In this document: positions 2,817 to 46,563 of the stretch, piece by piece
Layout of the letters: each line of letters opens with the position of its first letter
How positions within the stretch are numbered: position 1 is the stretch's first letter
Virus record (IMG/VR): IMGVR_UViG_3300044568_004364
DNA length: 64,000 nt
Reading direction: 5' to 3' (one strand)
Origin: a virus
Position numbers and translations under genes: made by a program
Notes under the pieces: generated by a model
The model's database searches: none
Seen by the model: only the letters and a program-made list of their open reading frames with translations
What the model was told of the DNA's origin: nothing

Positions 2817-3500
2817 TTATGAGTCTTTCTTAGATTTTTTGGCAGTCTTAGGAGTAGGCTGTGGTGCCGCTGAGGCAGCTTCTGCAGCCTCACGTGCTGC
2901 AGTGCGTGCCTCAAGACGTGTCATTACTTCGGCTGCAGTCATCCAAATGTCACGGTCTTCAATCATATCTTTAATTTCAGCTTCACTCAAGAAGTCCGTA
3001 TACATATCCTTAAAGAGACGTTCACTCCATCCACGCTCGTGAATTAAGCAGCTATACATCTCGCCACCTTTGCCCATTGTTTGTGAGCTATAGTTGTGAA
3101 ACAAGAATACACTATGATCAGTAATCATATATTCATCTGCCATAAGGAAGATAAGAGTTGCTGCGCTCATGCATGCTCCTTCAACACTTGCAATGATATG
3201 CGCTTCCGTTTCAGATAGTGCTTGTAAGAATTGAATGGTTGTAAAGATGTTACCGCCTGGGCAATTAATGTGAAGTTTAATTACATCAGTTGGGCGGCTA
3301 TTACGTATATCATGAAACCAATCAACATATTCTGATGGGTCACCAATAGTATCACTAAGGTAATATTCCTTTACTGCTCCATAGTCATTTGCATATGAAT
3401 GCGTATTGTCAGGTTTGAATAGTTTGCCGAATAGTTCGGCGTTATTTTTATTTTTATTATTTTTATGCATGTCCGAATAGTTTACTTTTATTGTATTCAT
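2817..3500 (-). CDS. ClpP-like serine protease
   Basis: IKLHINCPGG, GACMSAATLIF, FLFHN motifs of the ClpP fold. Confidence 0.8.
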   Translation of the reverse strand: MNTIKVNYSDMHKNNKNKNNAELFGKLFKPDNTHSYANDYGAVKEYYLSDTIGDPSEYVDWFHDIRNSRPTDVIKLHINCPGGNIFTTIQFLQALSETEAHIIASVEGACMSAATLIFLMADEYMITDHSVFLFHNYSSQTMGKGGEMYSCLIHERGWSERLFKDMYTDFLSEAEIKDMIEDRDIWMTAAEVMTRLEARTAAREAAEAASAAPQPTPKTAKKSKKDS

Positions 3501-20751: not shown

Positions 20752-21930
20752 TTACATTTTGCCGAGTACAACAGATAGAATGTCTGAAACATTTAATCCG
20801 GTATTAACACTAATACGTTTAACATTCCCATTGTTTTTACATGGAAATACATGATCCTTCGAAACAATTATTGATTTACCGCTTTCGGTTGTAATCTTTA
20901 CACAATCTTTCATCTTATTATGATGCTTAAACATTACTGTTTTATATTCATCATTTGCAGTAATTTGGTCACCTAGTTTAACTTCATCGAGTGTTTTAAC
21001 TTGTCCATCACGCATAGTAACGGATTCAGTAATAGCAATACATTCACTTGTATCCGTAATTTCGATATCACTGCTGGAATATCCCGCTCTTGTAACTTGA
21101 GTTGCGCTCCAGATAGGAACATTAAATTCAACAGCCAATCCACGAATTTCTTCAGCAATACTTTTGATAAGACTATAAGTATTGACACTACCGCTCAATC
21201 CTTTCATGCGACTACTCGCGCAAATGTTTAGATAATCAATATAAATGATGTCTGGCTCAAACTTCTTTTTCAATTTGAGTTCAAGTAACAATGCGCGAAA
21301 GTGACCAACGTGTGCGCTCGCGGTTGGATATTCTTTGACAACAAGTTTACCTTTGGTTTTATCGCTAATACCTTTAACCTTTGTGTTGAATGATGCTTTA
21401 GTCAAGTCTTTTAATTGGTCAATACGAACATCAAAAAGATTGGCATCAATACGTTCTGCAATCTTTTCTTCAGCCATTTCCATTGTAATGTATAGTACAT
21501 TACGACCTTGTGCCAATGCAGCGCTTGCCATGTGACACATACCTAAGCTCTTTCCGCAACCCGTATTATGTGAAGAAACACCATCAGTATAGTATCGGTG
21601 ATTTTCATGCTCAACTTGAATATCAACGATTGGAATTTGCTTTCCTGTTTTTGTAACAATACCAATTTGGTATCCGTCTTCAGTCAGATATTGCTGTTTT
21701 TTAAGAACTAGATCTTTTGCATATTGCCAACCATCAATAGTTTCAAACAAGTGATTTTCATTGACTCGAATAACTTTTCCGCTATTAAGCAATAAAACGT
21801 ATTCTTCCCACATTCCTTTATCAACAAATGCTGATACGGGAACAAAACCATCGGGTGAATCTACTTCTATTGTGTATCCTGCATTCAGGAGCTCTTCAAT
21901 TTCTTTAATTTTAATAATTTTTTCGGTCAT
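20752..21930 (-). CDS. 41: gp41 helicase fragment 2: IntC-1 (21565-21930), middle extein, IntN-2 (20755-21042)
   Basis: HRYYTDGVSSHN|TGCGKS, YITMEM, IDYLNI, SATQ...DTSE|CIAITES...SKDHVFP. Confidence 0.92.
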   Translation of the reverse strand: MTEKIIKIKEIEELLNAGYTIEVDSPDGFVPVSAFVDKGMWEEYVLLLNSGKVIRVNENHLFETIDGWQYAKDLVLKKQQYLTEDGYQIGIVTKTGKQIPIVDIQVEHENHRYYTDGVSSHNTGCGKSLGMCHMASAALAQGRNVLYITMEMAEEKIAERIDANLFDVRIDQLKDLTKASFNTKVKGISDKTKGKLVVKEYPTASAHVGHFRALLLELKLKKKFEPDIIYIDYLNICASSRMKGLSGSVNTYSLIKSIAEEIRGLAVEFNVPIWSATQVTRAGYSSSDIEITDTSECIAITESVTMRDGQVKTLDEVKLGDQITANDEYKTVMFKHHNKMKDCVKITTESGKSIIVSKDHVFPCKNNGNVKRISVNTGLNVSDILSVVLGKM

Positions 21931-41961: not shown

Positions 41962-42148
41962 AATGATATTGTATCAGAGTTCGTTTAGCCGCGGTACTTC
42001 AAACGGATGAAGACATCTTTGTTGTCTTCCATGATATCAGCGAGCAGCTTCATGCAGTAGTCAACCCAAGCCTCTTGAGTGATCTCGCCTCTTTGAACGG
42101 CGGCGAACATTTCGTAGTATTCTTTATTATCGGTCATGATGTGATTTG

Positions 42149-42217
42149 GTTACAAGATTATTCTACCACAAAAATGCACACTTGTAAATAAAAAAATGCG
42201 AAAAAATGCATTTTTTT
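42149..42217 (-). promoter_or_regulatory. early promoter with upstream palindrome
   Basis: TTTACAAG...TGGTAGAATAATCTTGTAACC; AAAAAATGCATTTTTT. Confidence 0.75.
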
Positions 42218-42245
42218 CACAAAAATACTCCTTGGGGAGACTTTT

Positions 42246-42473
42246 TTAGTCCTTGATGCGCCGTGGGCCACGCAGTGGACGAGGCGGTAGCTGTTCTTCA
42301 ATGTAGCGACATGCCGCAGAGCTTAAGACTTCATCTCCGCAAGAGTCACACTTATGAACAGGCACATTCTCCACAACATAGTTTTGTCCTTCGACCGTTT
42401 TGTCGAACTTCTGATATTCGACACGCAGAGTGCCGTCGCAATCAAAGCAAGGGATGTCTTGTAAATGTTTCAT
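42246..42473 (-). CDS. YgiT/MqsA-type zinc-finger protein
   Basis: CFDC...VENVPVHKCDSCGD. Confidence 0.7.
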   Translation of the reverse strand: MKHLQDIPCFDCDGTLRVEYQKFDKTVEGQNYVVENVPVHKCDSCGDEVLSSAACRYIEEQLPPRPLRGPRRIKD

Positions 42474-42605
42474 AATTTTCGTCGTCTTCAAGTCTAACAG
42501 ATGATTGGATCAAGCTTTCGTGTAGTATCTCGTTGCCTTCATCATCATATTCGTATCTTTCCCAATATCCACATTCGTCATCACCAATTTGATTTTCCAT
42601 GGTAG

Positions 42606-42950
42606 TTACTGAGGTTTGGGCGTGGTCGGAGTGGCGCTCTCGCCGCGTGCCTCACCTTGTGCGTTCGGCTCAGAATAAAGGTCATCCAGTTCGCCGTGAT
42701 CGGGGCAGTAGTAATACGGCTTACCGTCCCGCCAGTTGATCGAGGACTCCACACAGCACACGGGGCAGAGATTGCGCGGGTATGCCGTGCCGATCATGTC
42801 TTCGCAGCGACAATGCCACTCGTCCAGTTCGTGGTATTTTGCCCATGCTTCCATCACTGGTTGAGCCACCGCAAGAAGCCGAACAAGTCGCGGCAGATCA
42901 ACCGCCTTGTTGCTGGTGTTTTGGGTATCGTTTGGCAATTCAGAGTTCAT
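42606..42950 (-). CDS. cassette ORF, Cys-rich hypothetical protein
   Basis: Start lies in an attC loop; CPVC...CPDH. Confidence 0.65.
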   Translation of the reverse strand: MNSELPNDTQNTSNKAVDLPRLVRLLAVAQPVMEAWAKYHELDEWHCRCEDMIGTAYPRNLCPVCCVESSINWRDGKPYYYCPDHGELDDLYSEPNAQGEARGESATPTTPKPQ

Positions 42951-43009
42951 TGGTGTTTTGGTCGTTTGTTTGGTTGTAGATCGGCGGTGTCTGCGCTGTG
43001 GCGTTAGCC
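42878..43009 (+). repeat. attC site
   Basis: GCCGAAC-aagtc-GCG(G)CAGAT..ACCGCC / GGCGGT-GTCTGCGC-tgtggc-GTTAGCC. Confidence 0.85.
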
Positions 43010-43201
43010 AAGAAATTCCTCGGGGCGGATGATGTTTTCACCAGGGTCATCGCTTCCGCAGTGGCAGCAGACATACCCGTTTCGGATTACTCGCCCGCAA
43101 TGGTCGCATTCGACCAGTTCGGGGCATTCCCCGATTACGGTTTCCATGAGTTGTGCAAGCCATTGGCGGCTACCTGTTTTTAGTTTGCGGAGTTTCTTCA
43201 T
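43004..43201 (-). CDS. cassette ORF, zinc-ribbon hypothetical protein
   Basis: CDHC...CCHC; stop TAA lies in the attC core. Confidence 0.65.
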   Translation of the reverse strand: MKKLRKLKTGSRQWLAQLMETVIGECPELVECDHCGRVIRNGYVCCHCGSDDPGENIIRPEEFLG

Positions 43202-43212
43202 AATTCGTAAGA

Positions 43213-43304
43213 GGCTAACAAGTGAATGCTGGCAACGGCGGGAAGTTGCCTGTTTGGTTTATTCGGAGTCCAGCGCCCGCCGCGCCAGATCTTTGTCGTT
43301 CGGC
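43213..43304 (+). repeat. attC site
   Basis: GGCTAAC..AT(G)CTGGC..CGGCGGG / CCCGCCG..GCCAGAT..GTTCGGC. Confidence 0.85.
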
Positions 43305-43580
43305 AGAGAACTCGCAGCCTTGCTATTTTCTCTTCTCTGTTTTTGTCTGTCATTTCTTCGAGACCAGTCATGAGTTTATTTCAGTTGTTCTATGGTCTCC
43401 GCAATAGCACCAATGATACCTCATGGGGGTTCTTTTCCCGATAATGATTGTGCATCCGAGATTCCATTTGTGGACGTGTCCTTTTTGAATGCTTTTCTTG
43501 TTAGACCTTCCGTTTCTTCGCTGACGACGTATCTTTGTGATTGTTTTCTTGAGGTGTTGGTTCATTTTATTGTTTGTTGT

Positions 43581-43634
43581 TCCGAACATTCCGCATCAAG
43601 CAACGCTGGGCGTGCCTGTGCTTGGCTGTTGTGC
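43581..43634 (+). repeat. attC site (minimal, 54 bp)
   Basis: TCCGAAC-attcc-GCA(T)CAAGC-ACGC / GCGT-GCCTGTGC-ttggct-GTTGTGC. Confidence 0.75.
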
Positions 43635-43993
43635 TAATAAAGGTTCTCGCTGAACAGCCGCTCGCCATCGCCCCCGCAGCGTCGACGGACTTGGTTCTGA
43701 TCGACGGCGACGATCCACGCTTCTTCACGGGTCATCCAGTCCCCGAACTGATCCACGAATCCTTGATCCCATGCTTTGAAGTCGTGACCCATAGCATTGG
43801 CTTGCACCCTCATGAGCTTGTCCCAGTGCCGAGCACCGCAGATGATTAGCAGCTTGTTCACACGGTGCCGATTAGCAGCGCATACCACGCGGCGAGGGGT
43901 CTTTGTGTAGTCGGGCTTCCACTCGGGTTCGGAAGAAGCACCACAAGACGGTGAGCCCAACGAATCGGGCGGTGGAGTTGGTTTTGTATTCAT
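43634..43993 (-). CDS. cassette ORF, conserved phage hypothetical protein
   Basis: VVCAANR...GARH...QGFVDQFG..TREEAW..A...LFSENLY. Confidence 0.7.
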   Translation of the reverse strand: MNTKPTPPPDSLGSPSCGASSEPEWKPDYTKTPRRVVCAANRHRVNKLLIICGARHWDKLMRVQANAMGHDFKAWDQGFVDQFGDWMTREEAWIVAVDQNQVRRRCGGDGERLFSENLY

Positions 43994-44035
43994 GATCTTT
44001 TCTCGCCCGATTCGTGGGCTACCTCGACGTTAGCT
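43938..44035 (+). repeat. attC site (R'' AAC changed to CAC)
   Basis: GCACCAC-aagac-GGT(G)AGCCC-ACGAATCGGGCG / CGCCCGATTCGT-GGGCTACC..GTTAGCT. Confidence 0.8.
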
Positions 44036-44658
44036 CCAATAATCGGCCATCCCATATCAGCCACAAGACTCTCGGCCTCCTCCTTAGTTGGTAGCGCATC
44101 CATCCAGAATCCGTCCTCCAACGTAATCGCCCACTGGACATCTCCCGTCTCGTCGGTTTCGTATATTTCCACGGGTTCCCCTGCTCGTCGAATCGCCTCC
44201 TTGTATCCCGTGGGACATTCCTTGAGGAACCGAATCGCCCAAGAAGAGCTAACAAGGTGGTCGAGGACAACGGGCGGGGCGGTGTGTGTCGAAGTTTCCA
44301 TGTGCTTAGAGAGTTTATGAGGTATCGGAGTGGCGCTTTCCGCCCGTGCCTCACCTTGATCGTTCGCCAAAGAAACAAGAACGTCCCCGTGGCAGGCTTG
44401 CGGAGCGCACCAGCACCCCAACACTTTTCCGCGCAGTTCATGCAGCGCAGCCATGAGATGCGGTTGAGTTACTACCCATTCACGGTATTTTCGGATCACG
44501 GTTTCCCGGTCGCCGTCCTTCCCAATCTCAAACGGGTTTCCCCATTTCGACGGCCTGCCGATACACACGTCATGCTTCGACCGTTTGCAGTGAACCACAA
44601 ATGGCGAACAAGGCGGTGGAGGACAACAGCCTCCCGTTGGGTCTTTTGGTGTATTCAT
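43990..44658 (-). CDS. two-cassette fusion ORF: DUF4326-like domain plus second hypothetical domain
   Basis: IGRPSKWGNPF...LGCWCAP.ACHGDVL; reads through attC 44247-44368 with an internal METST start. Confidence 0.7.
   Translation of the reverse strand: MNTPKDPTGGCCPPPPCSPFVVHCKRSKHDVCIGRPSKWGNPFEIGKDGDRETVIRKYREWVVTQPHLMAALHELRGKVLGCWCAPQACHGDVLVSLANDQGEARAESATPIPHKLSKHMETSTHTAPPVVLDHLVSSSWAIRFLKECPTGYKEAIRRAGEPVEIYETDETGDVQWAITLEDGFWMDALPTKEEAESLVADMGWPIIGANVEVAHESGEKRS
44247..44368 (+). repeat. attC site
   Basis: AGCTAAC-aaggt-GGT(C)GAGG..CGGGCGG / CCGCCCG..CCTCACC-ttgatc-GTTCGCC. Confidence 0.88.
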
Positions 44659-44700
44659 GATTTTTTGTCGGGACTCTGTAAGTCACCTTGGGCGTTGTGC
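44603..44700 (+). repeat. attC site
   Basis: GGCGAAC-aaggc-GGTG..ACAG..TCCCG / CGGGA..CTGT..CACC-ttgggc-GTTGTGC. Confidence 0.8.
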
Positions 44701-44933
44701 TGAATAAATTCGTGCGGGAACTCCTCGCTGAATCCGTAGTGTTCCCTGAACTCTTCCCCCGTCATCGGATCGTTTCTTGCAGCCATCAATCCGTCTGTGG
44801 TATCAACCGTTCTCAGGACATATCTGCGTTCCATCCTGTTGCGGTCGATAGTGACCACAAAAGGCCACCCGTCAAAATCAACGGCACAACAAGCCGCATC
44901 ACGCAACCCGCTGGAAGTCTGTTCTTTATTCAT
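44655..44933 (-). CDS. cassette ORF, hypothetical protein
   Basis: Start and stop both lie in attC loops. Confidence 0.6.
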   Translation of the reverse strand: MNKEQTSSGLRDAACCAVDFDGWPFVVTIDRNRMERRYVLRTVDTTDGLMAARNDPMTGEEFREHYGFSEEFPHEFIQHNAQGDLQSPDKKS

Positions 44934-44998
44934 GGTTTTGAGTGGGCGGGTGCGTGTGCTTTGCGTTCGGCAGCGATGCCATCACATCGACGTTCGGT
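44884..44998 (+). repeat. attC site (imperfect L boxes)
   Basis: GCACAAC-aagcc...CGCTG / CAGCG...GTTCGGT. Confidence 0.7.
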
Positions 44999-45237
44999 GA
45001 AGAAATTACAACGAGCACGCCACACAGTCCCGCCATCCATCCAACGGACAGTCCGAGGGCAGCAGCGCACCATGCAACTAAGTCAGCATGACCGCCTAGC
45101 CCGTATGTGAATACAGTGATTCCACTGAGCAAGGGCGTGCAGATTAGCGAAGCCGCTAGGTTATTCCAAACACACCGAACAAGTCGCTCCTGAGCAACCG
45201 CGCCCGCCGTGTTATTTGAGTCTGATTCTGTTTTCAT
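44926..45237 (-). CDS. cassette ORF, membrane protein
   Basis: Two hydrophobic segments; start and stop lie in attC loops. Confidence 0.6.
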   Translation of the reverse strand: MKTESDSNNTAGAVAQERLVRCVWNNLAASLICTPLLSGITVFTYGLGGHADLVAWCAAALGLSVGWMAGLCGVLVVISSPNVDVMASLPNAKHTHPPTQNHE

Positions 45238-45304
45238 ATTGTTGTAAATTGAACATGTCGATACAGAACACGGCTATTGCCGCTCCTGATCTTGCCTGTT
45301 CGGC
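45174..45304 (+). repeat. attC site
   Basis: ACCGAAC-aagtc..GAGC..GCCGTGTT / AACACGGC..GCTC..GTTCGGC. Confidence 0.75.
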
Positions 45305-45540
45305 AGACAATTATTACATTTGGGCTTTCCACTAAAAACACGCCACCCAGCAGACCACGCCTGTTCCACGCATTCAGCCTTGGTCTTACAGTAAAACCCC
45401 TCACCACCGCACCCGCTTTGGCAGAAGATTCGCCACTCACGCATTGTTCCTCCATTGTAATCTTTGAAGGTTAAGTGCGGAATCAAAGAAGCCGAACAAT
45501 TCGTGAGAGGCAACGCCTCGGAGTCTGTTGGTGTATTCAT
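45274..45540 (-). CDS. cassette ORF, Cys-rich hypothetical protein
   Basis: MNTPTD start in attC loop; CQSGC...CNNC. Confidence 0.6.
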   Translation of the reverse strand: MNTPTDSEALPLTNCSASLIPHLTFKDYNGGTMREWRIFCQSGCGGEGFYCKTKAECVEQAWSAGWRVFSGKPKCNNCLPNRQDQERQ

Positions 45541-45586
45541 AGTCGTTATTGGCGTGCCTCCACAGAGGCGTTCGCTGAATCGTAAT
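45491..45586 (+). repeat. attC site
   Basis: GCCGAAC-aattc-GTG(A)GAGGC-ACGCC / GGCGT-GCCTCCAC-agaggc-GTTCGCT. Confidence 0.88.
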
Positions 45587-45851
45587 TGCGGAACTCTGGA
45601 GTGCCGCGCCAGTTCCATTCGCGGTAGGTTTCATCAGCACCCACGGGGCAGTTGAGCCACATGCAGGAGTAGCAAGGTTCCTCGACGTGGACATGCGCCC
45701 AAAGACCTCCGTAGAGGCGACGATACCACTCATGGTTCCCAAGAAAACATGCAAACCAGCCCCAGCGAACAAGGCGGCGCATCCATTCGGTCCAAATGGC
45801 TTGGCGAGATTTGACGCTCTTTAGTGTTTCAACTCGTTCTTCGCTGATCAT
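45546..45851 (-). CDS. chimeric ORF: phage-derived start fused to first cassette
   Basis: AT-rich MISEERV start continues through attC half-site 45764-45785 (WMRRLVR). Confidence 0.6.
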   Translation of the reverse strand: MISEERVETLKSVKSRQAIWTEWMRRLVRWGWFACFLGNHEWYRRLYGGLWAHVHVEEPCYSCMWLNCPVGADETYREWNWRGTPEFRNYDSANASVEARQ

Positions 45852-46046
45852 AATATAAGTTTAATGTTAACCCCAAAGAATTGATTTCATAAGTTCCCAA
45901 CGCTGACGAAGCAATTCGGTATATTCAAATAGTTGATCTTCGTCGAGACACTCAATATTGTTCAATTCGCGAATACGTTTTTCAATAAGATTAAATTCAA
46001 TTTCTTCGTTGATCATAATATATAGTGTTATTTGAGTTACGAGTTC

Positions 46047-46427
46047 TTAGAGCAGATTTTGTTCCATATATTCCTCACATGTGGGAATAGTGTTTCGGTA
46101 TTGCTGCAGATCGGCAATAAGCATATCCAGTGATTCTCTGTTATGCATCTCAGGTGTGTTTAGGCAAAGATCTACAAATTTTAAAATTTGTTCCGAGATT
46201 TCTTCGTGTGAAGGGAGAGAGCAATACGCCACGATGAAGAAGTCTTCTTCCTTGCATTCGAGTGTATCATTTGCACCAGTCAAGCCAAAGCAGTAATTAT
46301 TCCAAGGACATTTGATGTTCCAATATTCCTCTCCGCCTTTCTCGAAAAGAGTTACGACATATGCCGTGGTGCCCCAATGAACGGTTTTGCCTTCACGAAC
46401 TGCTTGCTTAATTTCTGATAGATTCAT
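46047..46427 (-). CDS. hypothetical early protein
   Basis: First gene after the early promoter; MNLSEIKQAVREGKTVHW. Confidence 0.65.
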   Translation of the reverse strand: MNLSEIKQAVREGKTVHWGTTAYVVTLFEKGGEEYWNIKCPWNNYCFGLTGANDTLECKEEDFFIVAYCSLPSHEEISEQILKFVDLCLNTPEMHNRESLDMLIADLQQYRNTIPTCEEYMEQNLL

Positions 46428-46438
46428 AATGTGGTTTG

Positions 46439-46496
46439 GTTACATGATTATTCTACCATAAAAACACATACTTGTAAAACAAAAAATGATGAAAAT
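46439..46496 (-). promoter_or_regulatory. early promoter upstream of the cassette array
   Basis: TTTACAAG...TGGTAGAATAATCATGTAACC. Confidence 0.75.
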
Positions 46497-46504
46497 GTGA
46501 AAAA

Positions 46505-46540
46505 AGTGAAAAACCTATAGATACGTATAGGTTTTTCACT
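46505..46540. terminator. long AT-rich hairpin
   Basis: AGTGAAAAACCTATA-gatacg-TATAGGTTTTTCACT. Confidence 0.6.
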
Positions 46541-46563
46541 CTGTAAAAACCGCCTAAAACGGC

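Follow-up and report, generated by a model that had tools for sequence, protein, structure and literature searches.

The cassette array and its attC sites

The DNA analysed was a 64-kb window of the virus record IMGVR_UViG_3300044568_004364 (the whole stretch of 64,000 nucleotides, to which all positions refer). The complete record has a length of 73 kb and is about 37% complete. Ten gene cassettes of integron type were found in the window at 42.6-45.8 kb, with nine complete attC sites and a half-site at each end. A single metagenomic assembly underlies every statement on this array and its junctions. The array had been noticed in an earlier reading made from the letters alone (here called the sequence-only reading), and as an observation it was confirmed. 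With nine attC sites and no intI nearby, it falls under the definition of a cluster of attC sites lacking integron-integrases (CALIN) and not under that of a complete integron. From the sequence features described below, the array is very probably a ten-cassette CALIN belonging to a family of phage-borne integrons with bottom-strand cassette genes.

The phage was confirmed as T4-like by a UvsX with the T4 C-terminal domain, T4 RNA ligase 1, a gp41-like DnaB-type helicase, ribonucleotide reductase and 14 tRNAs. A search of the record for Gp23 gave no match, but control sequences gave none either. The absence of a tyrosine recombinase, noted earlier for the window, was found to extend to the full 73-kb record.

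The complete and partial sites are listed below, with bit scores from the covariance model R1.

42592-42669, plus strand: left-end attC remnant, consisting of the loop from its ATG, L' arm, spacer and R' core GTTCGGC (42663-42669); R''/L'' arm absent
42878-43009, plus strand: attC site 1, cassette A; 132 nucleotides; cores GCCGAAC and GTTAGCC; 72 bits
43213-43304, plus strand: attC site 2, cassette B; 92 nucleotides; 73.4 bits; hairpin confirmed by folding
43581-43634, plus strand: attC site 3, cassette C; 54 nucleotides; 40 bits
43938-44035, plus strand: attC site 4, cassette D; 98 nucleotides; R'' core GCACCAC; 27.6 bits
44247-44368, plus strand: attC site 5, cassette E; 122 nucleotides; 77.9 bits
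44603-44700, plus strand: attC site 6, cassette F; 98 nucleotides; 71.1 bits
44884-44971, plus strand: attC site 7, cassette G; 88 nucleotides; 42.1 bits; second core GTTCGGT at 44992
45174-45304, plus strand: attC site 8, cassette H; 131 nucleotides; 71.1 bits; most degenerate stem in a pair check
45491-45576, plus strand: attC site 9, cassette I; 86 nucleotides; 79.8 bits
45764-45778, plus strand: right-end attC remnant, cassette J; R'' core AGCGAAC and 8 nucleotides (spacer and first L'' bases), followed by native phage DNA

All cores of the nine hairpins and of the two half-sites were found at their positions in a sequence check. The layout NNNNAAC, spacer, L box, stem, L box, spacer, GTTNNNN was seen in all nine complete plus-strand sites. 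In each, a 7-nucleotide core is followed by a 5-nucleotide spacer, a stem, a very variable loop, the second stem arm, a spacer of 5-6 nucleotides and a second 7-nucleotide core, giving a total length of 54-132 nucleotides. Two to three extra bases, mostly 5 base pairs apart, were confined to the 5' (R''-L'') arm of the plus strand in the nine sites, which is the same placement as in the attC of aadA1. The extra base nearest the R box on the top strand was T, G, C or A in the window sites and C in aadA1. Other IMG/VR contigs with the same attC family (referred to by L numbers below) were gathered through searches with the cassette proteins, and AAC and GTT were found to be invariant in 40-41 of 41 family sites. 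The exception in the window is site 4, where the R'' core ends in CAC. The left-end remnant aligns with the 3' half of site 5, and R1 gave no full-site match to it (11.6 bits).

R1 was trained on seven window sites with a hand-checked structure of 20 pairs, sites 4 and 7 being left out of the training, and scans were run with filters off. The scan recovered the sites of the array, including the untrained site 7 (42.1 bits, E 6.5e-9) and site 4 (27.6 bits, E 5e-5). Beyond the sites of the array, no match was observed in the 64-kb window or the 73-kb record. Plasmid R100 was retrieved with the 60-nucleotide attC of aadA1 as query, this attC being placed after aadA1 on the coding strand. On R100, R1 placed the aadA1 attC at exactly 3001-3060 on the plus (aadA1) strand with 38.3 bits (E 2e-8). 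A weak match was obtained to the dfrA1 attC on plasmid pSE08-00436-1 (L026). Since R1 finds the paradigm aadA1 attC, the window sites are attC-like and the plus strand of the window corresponds to the canonical attC top strand. A scan of 41.0-47.5 kb with Rfam, which has no attC family, gave chance matches only.

Covariation was studied in an alignment of the 41 sites, taken from ten sources and fitted to the model, so that it leans slightly towards the structure. The two inner helices of the L and stem regions (helix 2 and helix 3) were 96% and 92% paired. A total of 188 double changes was counted, with double changes in 12 of 13 pairs, and the covariation score was 0.579 compared to 0.155 for shuffled and at most 0.11 for slid alignments. 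On this evidence the hairpins were shown to be attC-type sites of integrons, with a predicted competence for recombination.

Cassette signature

The sequence-only reading had described a cassette signature, in which the first core of each cassette complements its last. A mismatch count of 0 or 1 was upheld for all ten cassettes, but the structural R' core of site 7 is GTTCGGC at 44965 and not GTTCGGT at 44992, as had been read. With the core at 44965, cassette H shows one mismatch. The four variable bases of R'' complement the first core of their own cassette and not R' of their own site. In the window, each of the 8 pairs between complete sites had 0 or 1 mismatch, compared to 1-5 for cores within a site, and the two end cassettes, compared by eye with the half-site cores at 42663 and 45764, had none. 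In seven arrays including the window, the mean was 0.26 mismatches cassette-wise (n=31) and 2.39 within sites (n=38). Crossover at G/TT (between the G and the TT of the core) on a circular cassette yields such cassette-wise complementarity. The signature thus supports, at the sequence level, that the cassettes were made by IntI-type recombination at G/TT.

Tandem cores are present at 44965-44998, where the structural R' core of site 7 (GTTCGGC) is followed 27 nucleotides on by GTTCGGT, and the second matches the R'' core of cassette H perfectly. This second core could be a remnant of an empty or deleted cassette.

Cassette genes and their polarity

All cassette genes were found on the minus strand of the window, which is the attC bottom strand, a point missed in the sequence-only reading. 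The genes are as follows.

42606-42950, minus strand: cassette A gene; open reading frame (ORF) of 114 amino acids, Cys-rich; ATG in the loop of site 1, stop in the left remnant
43004-43201, minus strand: cassette B gene; 65 amino acids, zinc-ribbon-like with weak zinc-ribbon-type Pfam matches; stop TAA inside the core GTTAGCC
43198-43589, minus strand: cassette C; two short basic ORFs, 43368-43589 and 43198-43371, with ATGA overlaps; coding uncertain
43634-43993, minus strand: cassette D gene; 119 amino acids, small T4 Y16D-like protein (phrog_839, 8.1e-33; Atlas lead T4_Y16D, 0.91); ATG in the loop of site 4
43990-44658, minus strand: cassettes F and E; the DUF4326 gene of F reads through site 5 into E with no stop, giving a fusion of 222 amino acids
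44655-44933, minus strand: cassette G gene; 92 amino acids; ATG in the loop of site 7, joined to F by an ATGA overlap
44926-45237, minus strand: cassette H gene; 103 amino acids, hydrophobic; ATG in the loop of site 8
45274-45540, minus strand: cassette I gene; 88 amino acids from the loop ATG of site 9; weak phrog_926 match
45546-45851, minus strand: cassette J gene; 101 amino acids, chimeric; the first approximately 24 codons are a native phage gene start, MISEERVETLKSVKSRQAIWTEWM

The strand assignment is carried by family matches on the minus strand, namely DUF4326 (5e-28) and phrog_839 (8.1e-33). The loop ATG opens the gene of its own cassette in seven of the nine window sites. Over 38 sites, an ATG opening an ORF of at least 45 amino acids was found on the bottom strand in 27 and on the top strand in 9. 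In canonical cassettes the ORF lies on the attC top strand with the attC downstream of the gene; the window cassettes show the opposite polarity. Stop and start codons overlap as ATGA at 43990, 44655 and 43198. As the stops either overlap the following start or lie shortly before it, the ten genes form one chain. A literature search found no paper describing a reversed cassette polarity, which is an absence in a search and not a proof.

Family and sequence assignments of the cargo include DUF4326, the T4 Y16D-like protein, zinc-ribbon-type proteins and a membrane protein. The latter is the product of cassette H, which is probably a membrane protein judging from its hydrophobic sequence. In the fusion of F and E, DUF4326 covers residues 22-95 (5e-28) and phrog_464 was matched at 1.1e-34; cassette E may alternatively start at the loop ATG at 44301. 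An Atlas look-up of cassette A gave only sub-threshold leads to a function, and family searches (Pfam, PHROGs) of the cassette C ORFs gave no match.

Recurrence of cassettes in other arrays

The body of cassette A (42662-42890) was found to be 94% identical to L048 and 90% identical to L047. The homology begins at the core GTTCGGC and ends at R'' and its spacer. The sites upstream of this body are unrelated in the window, L047 and L048, and the downstream attC is related in L047 and different in L048. For cassette G, the body (44687-44868) recurs in L020-L022 with 94.5% identity and stands there behind a site-3-like attC. Site 3, which precedes cassette D in the window, is 84% identical to this L020-L022 site, where the cassette G homologue follows. 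Furthermore, site 4 is 80-83% identical to sites in L015-L019 and site 5 is 84% identical to L015 123-241. Sequence comparison thus showed cassettes A and G to be present in further arrays, with neighbours other than those in the window. No relative of cassette E was found among viral contigs. Homologues of cassette D in L001-L014 (40-59% identity) lack attC sites and are normal phage genes.

In a 61-kb phage of about 40-45% GC (L021, 5950-6260), the cassette G homologue stands alone behind the site-3-like attC. Its 5' end holds only a degenerate attC stub in which the loop ATG is kept, and it is another cassette fixed outside an array.

Junctions and mode of arrival

Four metagenome contigs (L035, L036, L038 and L041), obtained in a metagenome scan with the gene neighbouring the array as query, have flanks 96-100% identical to those of the window. 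At the locus they carry an intact native gene of 58 amino acids (MISEERVETLKSVKSRQAIWTEWMQKAAEGLNDD...) in a region of about 39% GC, and R1 found no attC at the locus in any of the four. After the gene start, the reading in these relatives continues ...WMQKAAEGLNDD... to the native 58-residue protein. Homology to the relatives ends at 45779 and restarts at 42583, which means that a block of 3195 nucleotides replaces about 500 nucleotides of native DNA. The earlier remark that the block is richer in GC than its flanks also held.

42584-45778, plus strand (attC top strand): foreign block of ten cassettes; bounded by the break of homology to the four contigs; 52-57% GC, compared to 35-44% in the flanks
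42442-42600, minus strand: chimeric ORF, 52 amino acids; ATG supplied by the left attC remnant; the stretch from 42583 downwards corresponds to the C-terminal portion of a native gene

The right junction (45778/45779) falls within the L'' arm of the last attC, and the left junction (42583/42584) lies 17 nucleotides past the loop ATG of a site without R''/L'' arm. Neither junction is at G/TT, and the attI motif described below was not found in the window. Both junctions fuse in frame with native coding sequence. On the left side, L035 2360-2504 matches window 42583-42439 at 96.6%. In contig L034, which matches the neighbouring gene at 77% identity, the downstream region differs and attC sites are absent. 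Because the end attC sites are truncated, the junctions lie off G/TT and the relatives are free of attC, the block appears to have arrived whole by non-site-specific recombination. The simplest reading of these sequences is a recent en bloc capture, via illegitimate or microhomology recombination, of an array assembled elsewhere. The two end remnants were also considered as halves of one attC, as in a multi-cassette circle, and this was rejected since no pairing is seen between the L'' bases at the right end and the L' arm at the left end.

The sequence-only reading had the array assembled in the phage itself, by a host-encoded or unlinked integrase inserting the cassettes one by one. The clean G/TT signature of the internal cassettes agrees with this, the integrase could be encoded by the host or by the 63% of the genome that the record does not cover, and cassettes could also have been shuffled after arrival. 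However, assembly in place is contradicted by the intact native gene and the entire lack of attC at the locus in the four close relatives, by the truncation of both terminal sites and by the position of both junctions off G/TT. No attI-like or secondary-site junction is present, and insertion at a secondary site leaves a complete attC at the top-strand downstream end, where the site is here cut. Assembly in place is consequently regarded as improbable.

Misassembly, by which a GC-rich piece of another genome would have been joined into a T4-like contig, is more improbable still. The single metagenomic record, the sharp jump in GC and a junction present in no second contig speak for such an artefact. 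On the other hand, the two flanks are from the same phage and lie about 500 nucleotides apart in the relatives, so that two matching misjoins would be needed. Furthermore, both junctions are in-frame fusions to native coding sequence, and neither of them shows a repeat common to the array ends and the phage. A double misjoin about 500 nucleotides apart in one gene, in frame at both ends, is unlikely.

The native gene start that is fused to cassette J (45836-45866) and the start of the next gene upstream (46003-46036), encoding MISEE... and MINEE..., share about 25 nucleotides including the ATG. Repeated gene-start sequences of this kind could serve as recombination points.

Integrase, attI and complete integrons of the same site family

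An integrase of 325 amino acids was found on the 10-kb contig L023, with a match to TIGR02249 (2.4e-75, 253.8 bits). Its best solved relative is VchIntIA (2A3V, 9e-42), and the IntI-specific insertion is covered by the match. Relatives with 80-100% identity are present on further viral contigs and in the genome of Haloferula luteola, in a provirus region listed in IMG/VR. One of the integrase-bearing contigs is a phage of 59.6 kb with direct terminal repeats, rated complete, in which the array lies between DnaB-type replication genes and the integrase and a terminase-like gene is found further on.

In the integrase-linked elements, the array is upstream of the intI start and the attC top strand points away from intI. 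A conserved attI motif, AATAAAACCGCGCnnGCGGTTGAATCAGTS, is located about 40-60 nucleotides upstream of the intI start, and its conservation ends exactly before GTTnnnn. The nnnn after attI complements the R'' core of the first attC in L029, L031 and L028. The conservation of attI up to G/TT and the complementary nnnn identify an attI x attC junction of canonical chemistry and polarity. A crossover in the other core, which would lead to canonical gene polarity, was ruled out, as attI abuts GTTnnnn and the attC of the first cassette follows its body. Complete integrons with intI, attI and array are thus present in L027-L033 (e.g. L029 4500-8975 and L028 80-3671).

The genes of the integrase-linked arrays run towards attI and intI. 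Their cargo comprises an N6 DNA methyltransferase, a second methyltransferase, Lar, an Acb2/Tad1-hairpin protein and a crAss001_48-like protein. Lar (3e-8), the Acb2/Tad1-hairpin protein (1.1e-6) and the two DNA methyltransferases are located in L029 4570-4998 and 6598-6933 and in L023 2463-3557. These matches suggest that the cargo includes counter-defence genes. Read in the direction of the genes, attI holds a GC hairpin followed by a T-run and also supplies the TGA stop for the first cassette gene. The hairpin and T-run could end transcription of the array just before intI.

In GenBank phages, neither megablast nor blastn of the array gave a match. Relatives of the integrase family in GenBank phages were only 32-37% identical, and these were the phage integrons already published and Virus Rctr41k. 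Searches for structural genes of the integron-bearing phages with Pfam TerL_ATPase and HK97 capsid gave no match; PHROGs gave replication genes and a weak terminase match.

Promoters and flanking features

Promoter calls are matches of a consensus scan. Two early-type promoters were found on the strand of the cassette genes.

46450-46478, minus strand: early-type promoter TTTACA-17-TAGAAT, 10 of 12 consensus positions matched, with TG; precedes the transcription unit of the array
42160-42188, minus strand: next early-type promoter, with identical hexamers, at the start of the following unit; region similar to 46387-46488 and L034 10663-10764

The sequence-only reading had the array expressed from an early promoter of its own at 46439-46496. 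An early-type promoter does lie upstream, at 46478-46450, while expression of the array from it is a prediction from the consensus. No strong terminator was found between the promoters at 46478-46450 and 42188-42160, and the array would therefore lie within one early-type transcription unit. Promoter-like matches were observed at unit borders and not inside the attC sites, save for one weak match. The promoter regions 46450-46545 and 42126-42240 are near-identical, and a strong hairpin at 46503-46543 precedes the first promoter. Both regions and L034 10663-10764 are alike and resemble the promoter-stem-loop repeats of T4-type phages.

Hyperplastic regions of T4-type phages are known to hold repeated promoter-early stem-loop (PeSL) motifs, each consisting of a promoter and a stem-loop. 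Small early genes are there bounded by repeated hairpins and are thought to shuffle by homologous recombination. The array resembles the PeSL arrangement in its small early genes, its position in a hyperplastic T4-type region and the repeated hairpins bounding its genes. Its sites differ in their attC cores, asymmetric bulges, cassette-wise complementarity and linked IntI/attI family, and the early promoter that stands beside each PeSL stem-loop is absent from them. That the hairpins are regulatory or repeat elements of the phage (T4-type promoter-stem-loop cassettes, terminators or repeats similar to repetitive extragenic palindromic elements) is the least probable explanation of all: such motifs are on record for T4-type phages and this unit is indeed flanked by a hairpin with an early promoter after it, but the site family requires no fixed sequence, promoter hexamers are absent inside the sites bar one weak match, a model of the sites detects class 1 attC, the cores complement cassette-wise and the family is linked to IntI and attI.

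Elsewhere in the window, the DnaB-type helicase gene at 20752-21930 (minus strand) was found to contain a Hint module, likely an intein.

Proposed origin and significance

The following course of events is proposed. An integron integrase would have assembled the cassettes in a donor element. Illegitimate or microhomology recombination would then have placed a block of about 3.2 kb within a small early gene of the T4-like phage, and two attC sites would have been cut in the process. The promoter at 46478-46450 is predicted to transcribe the block within a minus-strand operon, in which the genes would be translated in a chain, with starts in hairpin loops and stops that overlap or closely precede the next start. 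A matching integrase supplied in the same cell could still excise or exchange cassettes.

Several points weigh against this reading of the array as a captured member of the phage-borne integron family. The record, which is about 37% complete, contains neither integrase nor attI, and a phage-encoded integrase may lie elsewhere. Against TIGR02249, the L023 integrase reaches 253.8 bits and narrowly misses the curated cut-off of 265. In L048, the cassette A body is joined to an attC other than that in the window, so body and attC do not always travel together, which simple exchange by IntI does not predict. An exact search of viral contigs for the right junction found none, and the junctions are known from one assembled record. 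Finally, expression, translational coupling and recombination competence are all deduced from sequence.

A wider proposal, for and against which we hold the chances to be about equal, is that phages keep an integron system of their own. In this system, the attC loop would give each bottom-strand cassette its start codon, and in many cases also hold the stop of the gene before, so that any cassette would plug directly into a phage operon read towards attI and intI. A pool of small early genes and counter-defence genes (DNA methyltransferases, Lar, Acb2/Tad1-like) would be shared among unrelated phages, and an integrase-less virulent T4-like phage would have tapped it for a block of ten cassettes. 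The uniform reversal of the genes, together with starts placed in the recombination sites, points to expression by read-through from the far end of the array and not from an integrase-side promoter.

Integrons are known as bacterial stores of antibiotic-resistance and anti-phage defence genes, and the array suggests that phage-type cassettes circulate among phages. A virulent T4-like phage could in this way draw on the gene swapping of integrons, here with ten cassettes in a single recent event. Standard annotation, in which the gene is assumed to lie on the attC top strand, may misinterpret such cassettes. If the cargo does consist of counter-defence genes, the arrays would be a compact place to seek new anti-defence proteins, and would also let genes pass between temperate and virulent phages.

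Comparison with known integrons

The window sites share their attC cores, spacers, extra bases in the R''-L'' arm and variable loop with canonical integrons, such as the class 1 integron In2 on R100 and the Vibrio chromosomal integrons (VchIntIA, 2A3V). The G/TT crossover is also shared. The related complete elements further agree with canonical integrons in having attI by the 5' end of intI and the attC top strand directed away from intI. In class 1 integrons (aadA1), the attC top strand carries the gene, whose reading direction is away from intI. In contrast, the genes of the window and of the related phage integrons are on the bottom strand, most of them start in the attC loop, and in the relatives they are read towards attI and intI.

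Integrase and cassette genes point the same way in the Treponema-type integrons (PMC3607928; PMC4889954), as they do in the relatives described here. However, it is the integrase that is inverted in the Treponema type, whereas in these relatives the genes and not the integrase are reversed, and attC is directed opposite to intI. L028, L029, L030 and L031 accordingly have attI 40-60 nucleotides upstream of the intI start and attC top strands pointing away from intI, which differs from the Treponema layout.

Integrase-less attC clusters in virulent phages have already been published, and such phage attC sites were recombined by IntI1 (Qi et al. 2023). Like the window, these clusters consist of attC sites and cassettes in a lytic-type phage with no intI nearby. 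They were reported only as at least two predicted attC sites, in a text without mention of a reversed polarity. The window differs from them in its ten cassettes, its near-perfect cassette signature and the position of all its genes on the bottom strand, and in that relatives free of the array reveal how, and how recently, it arrived.

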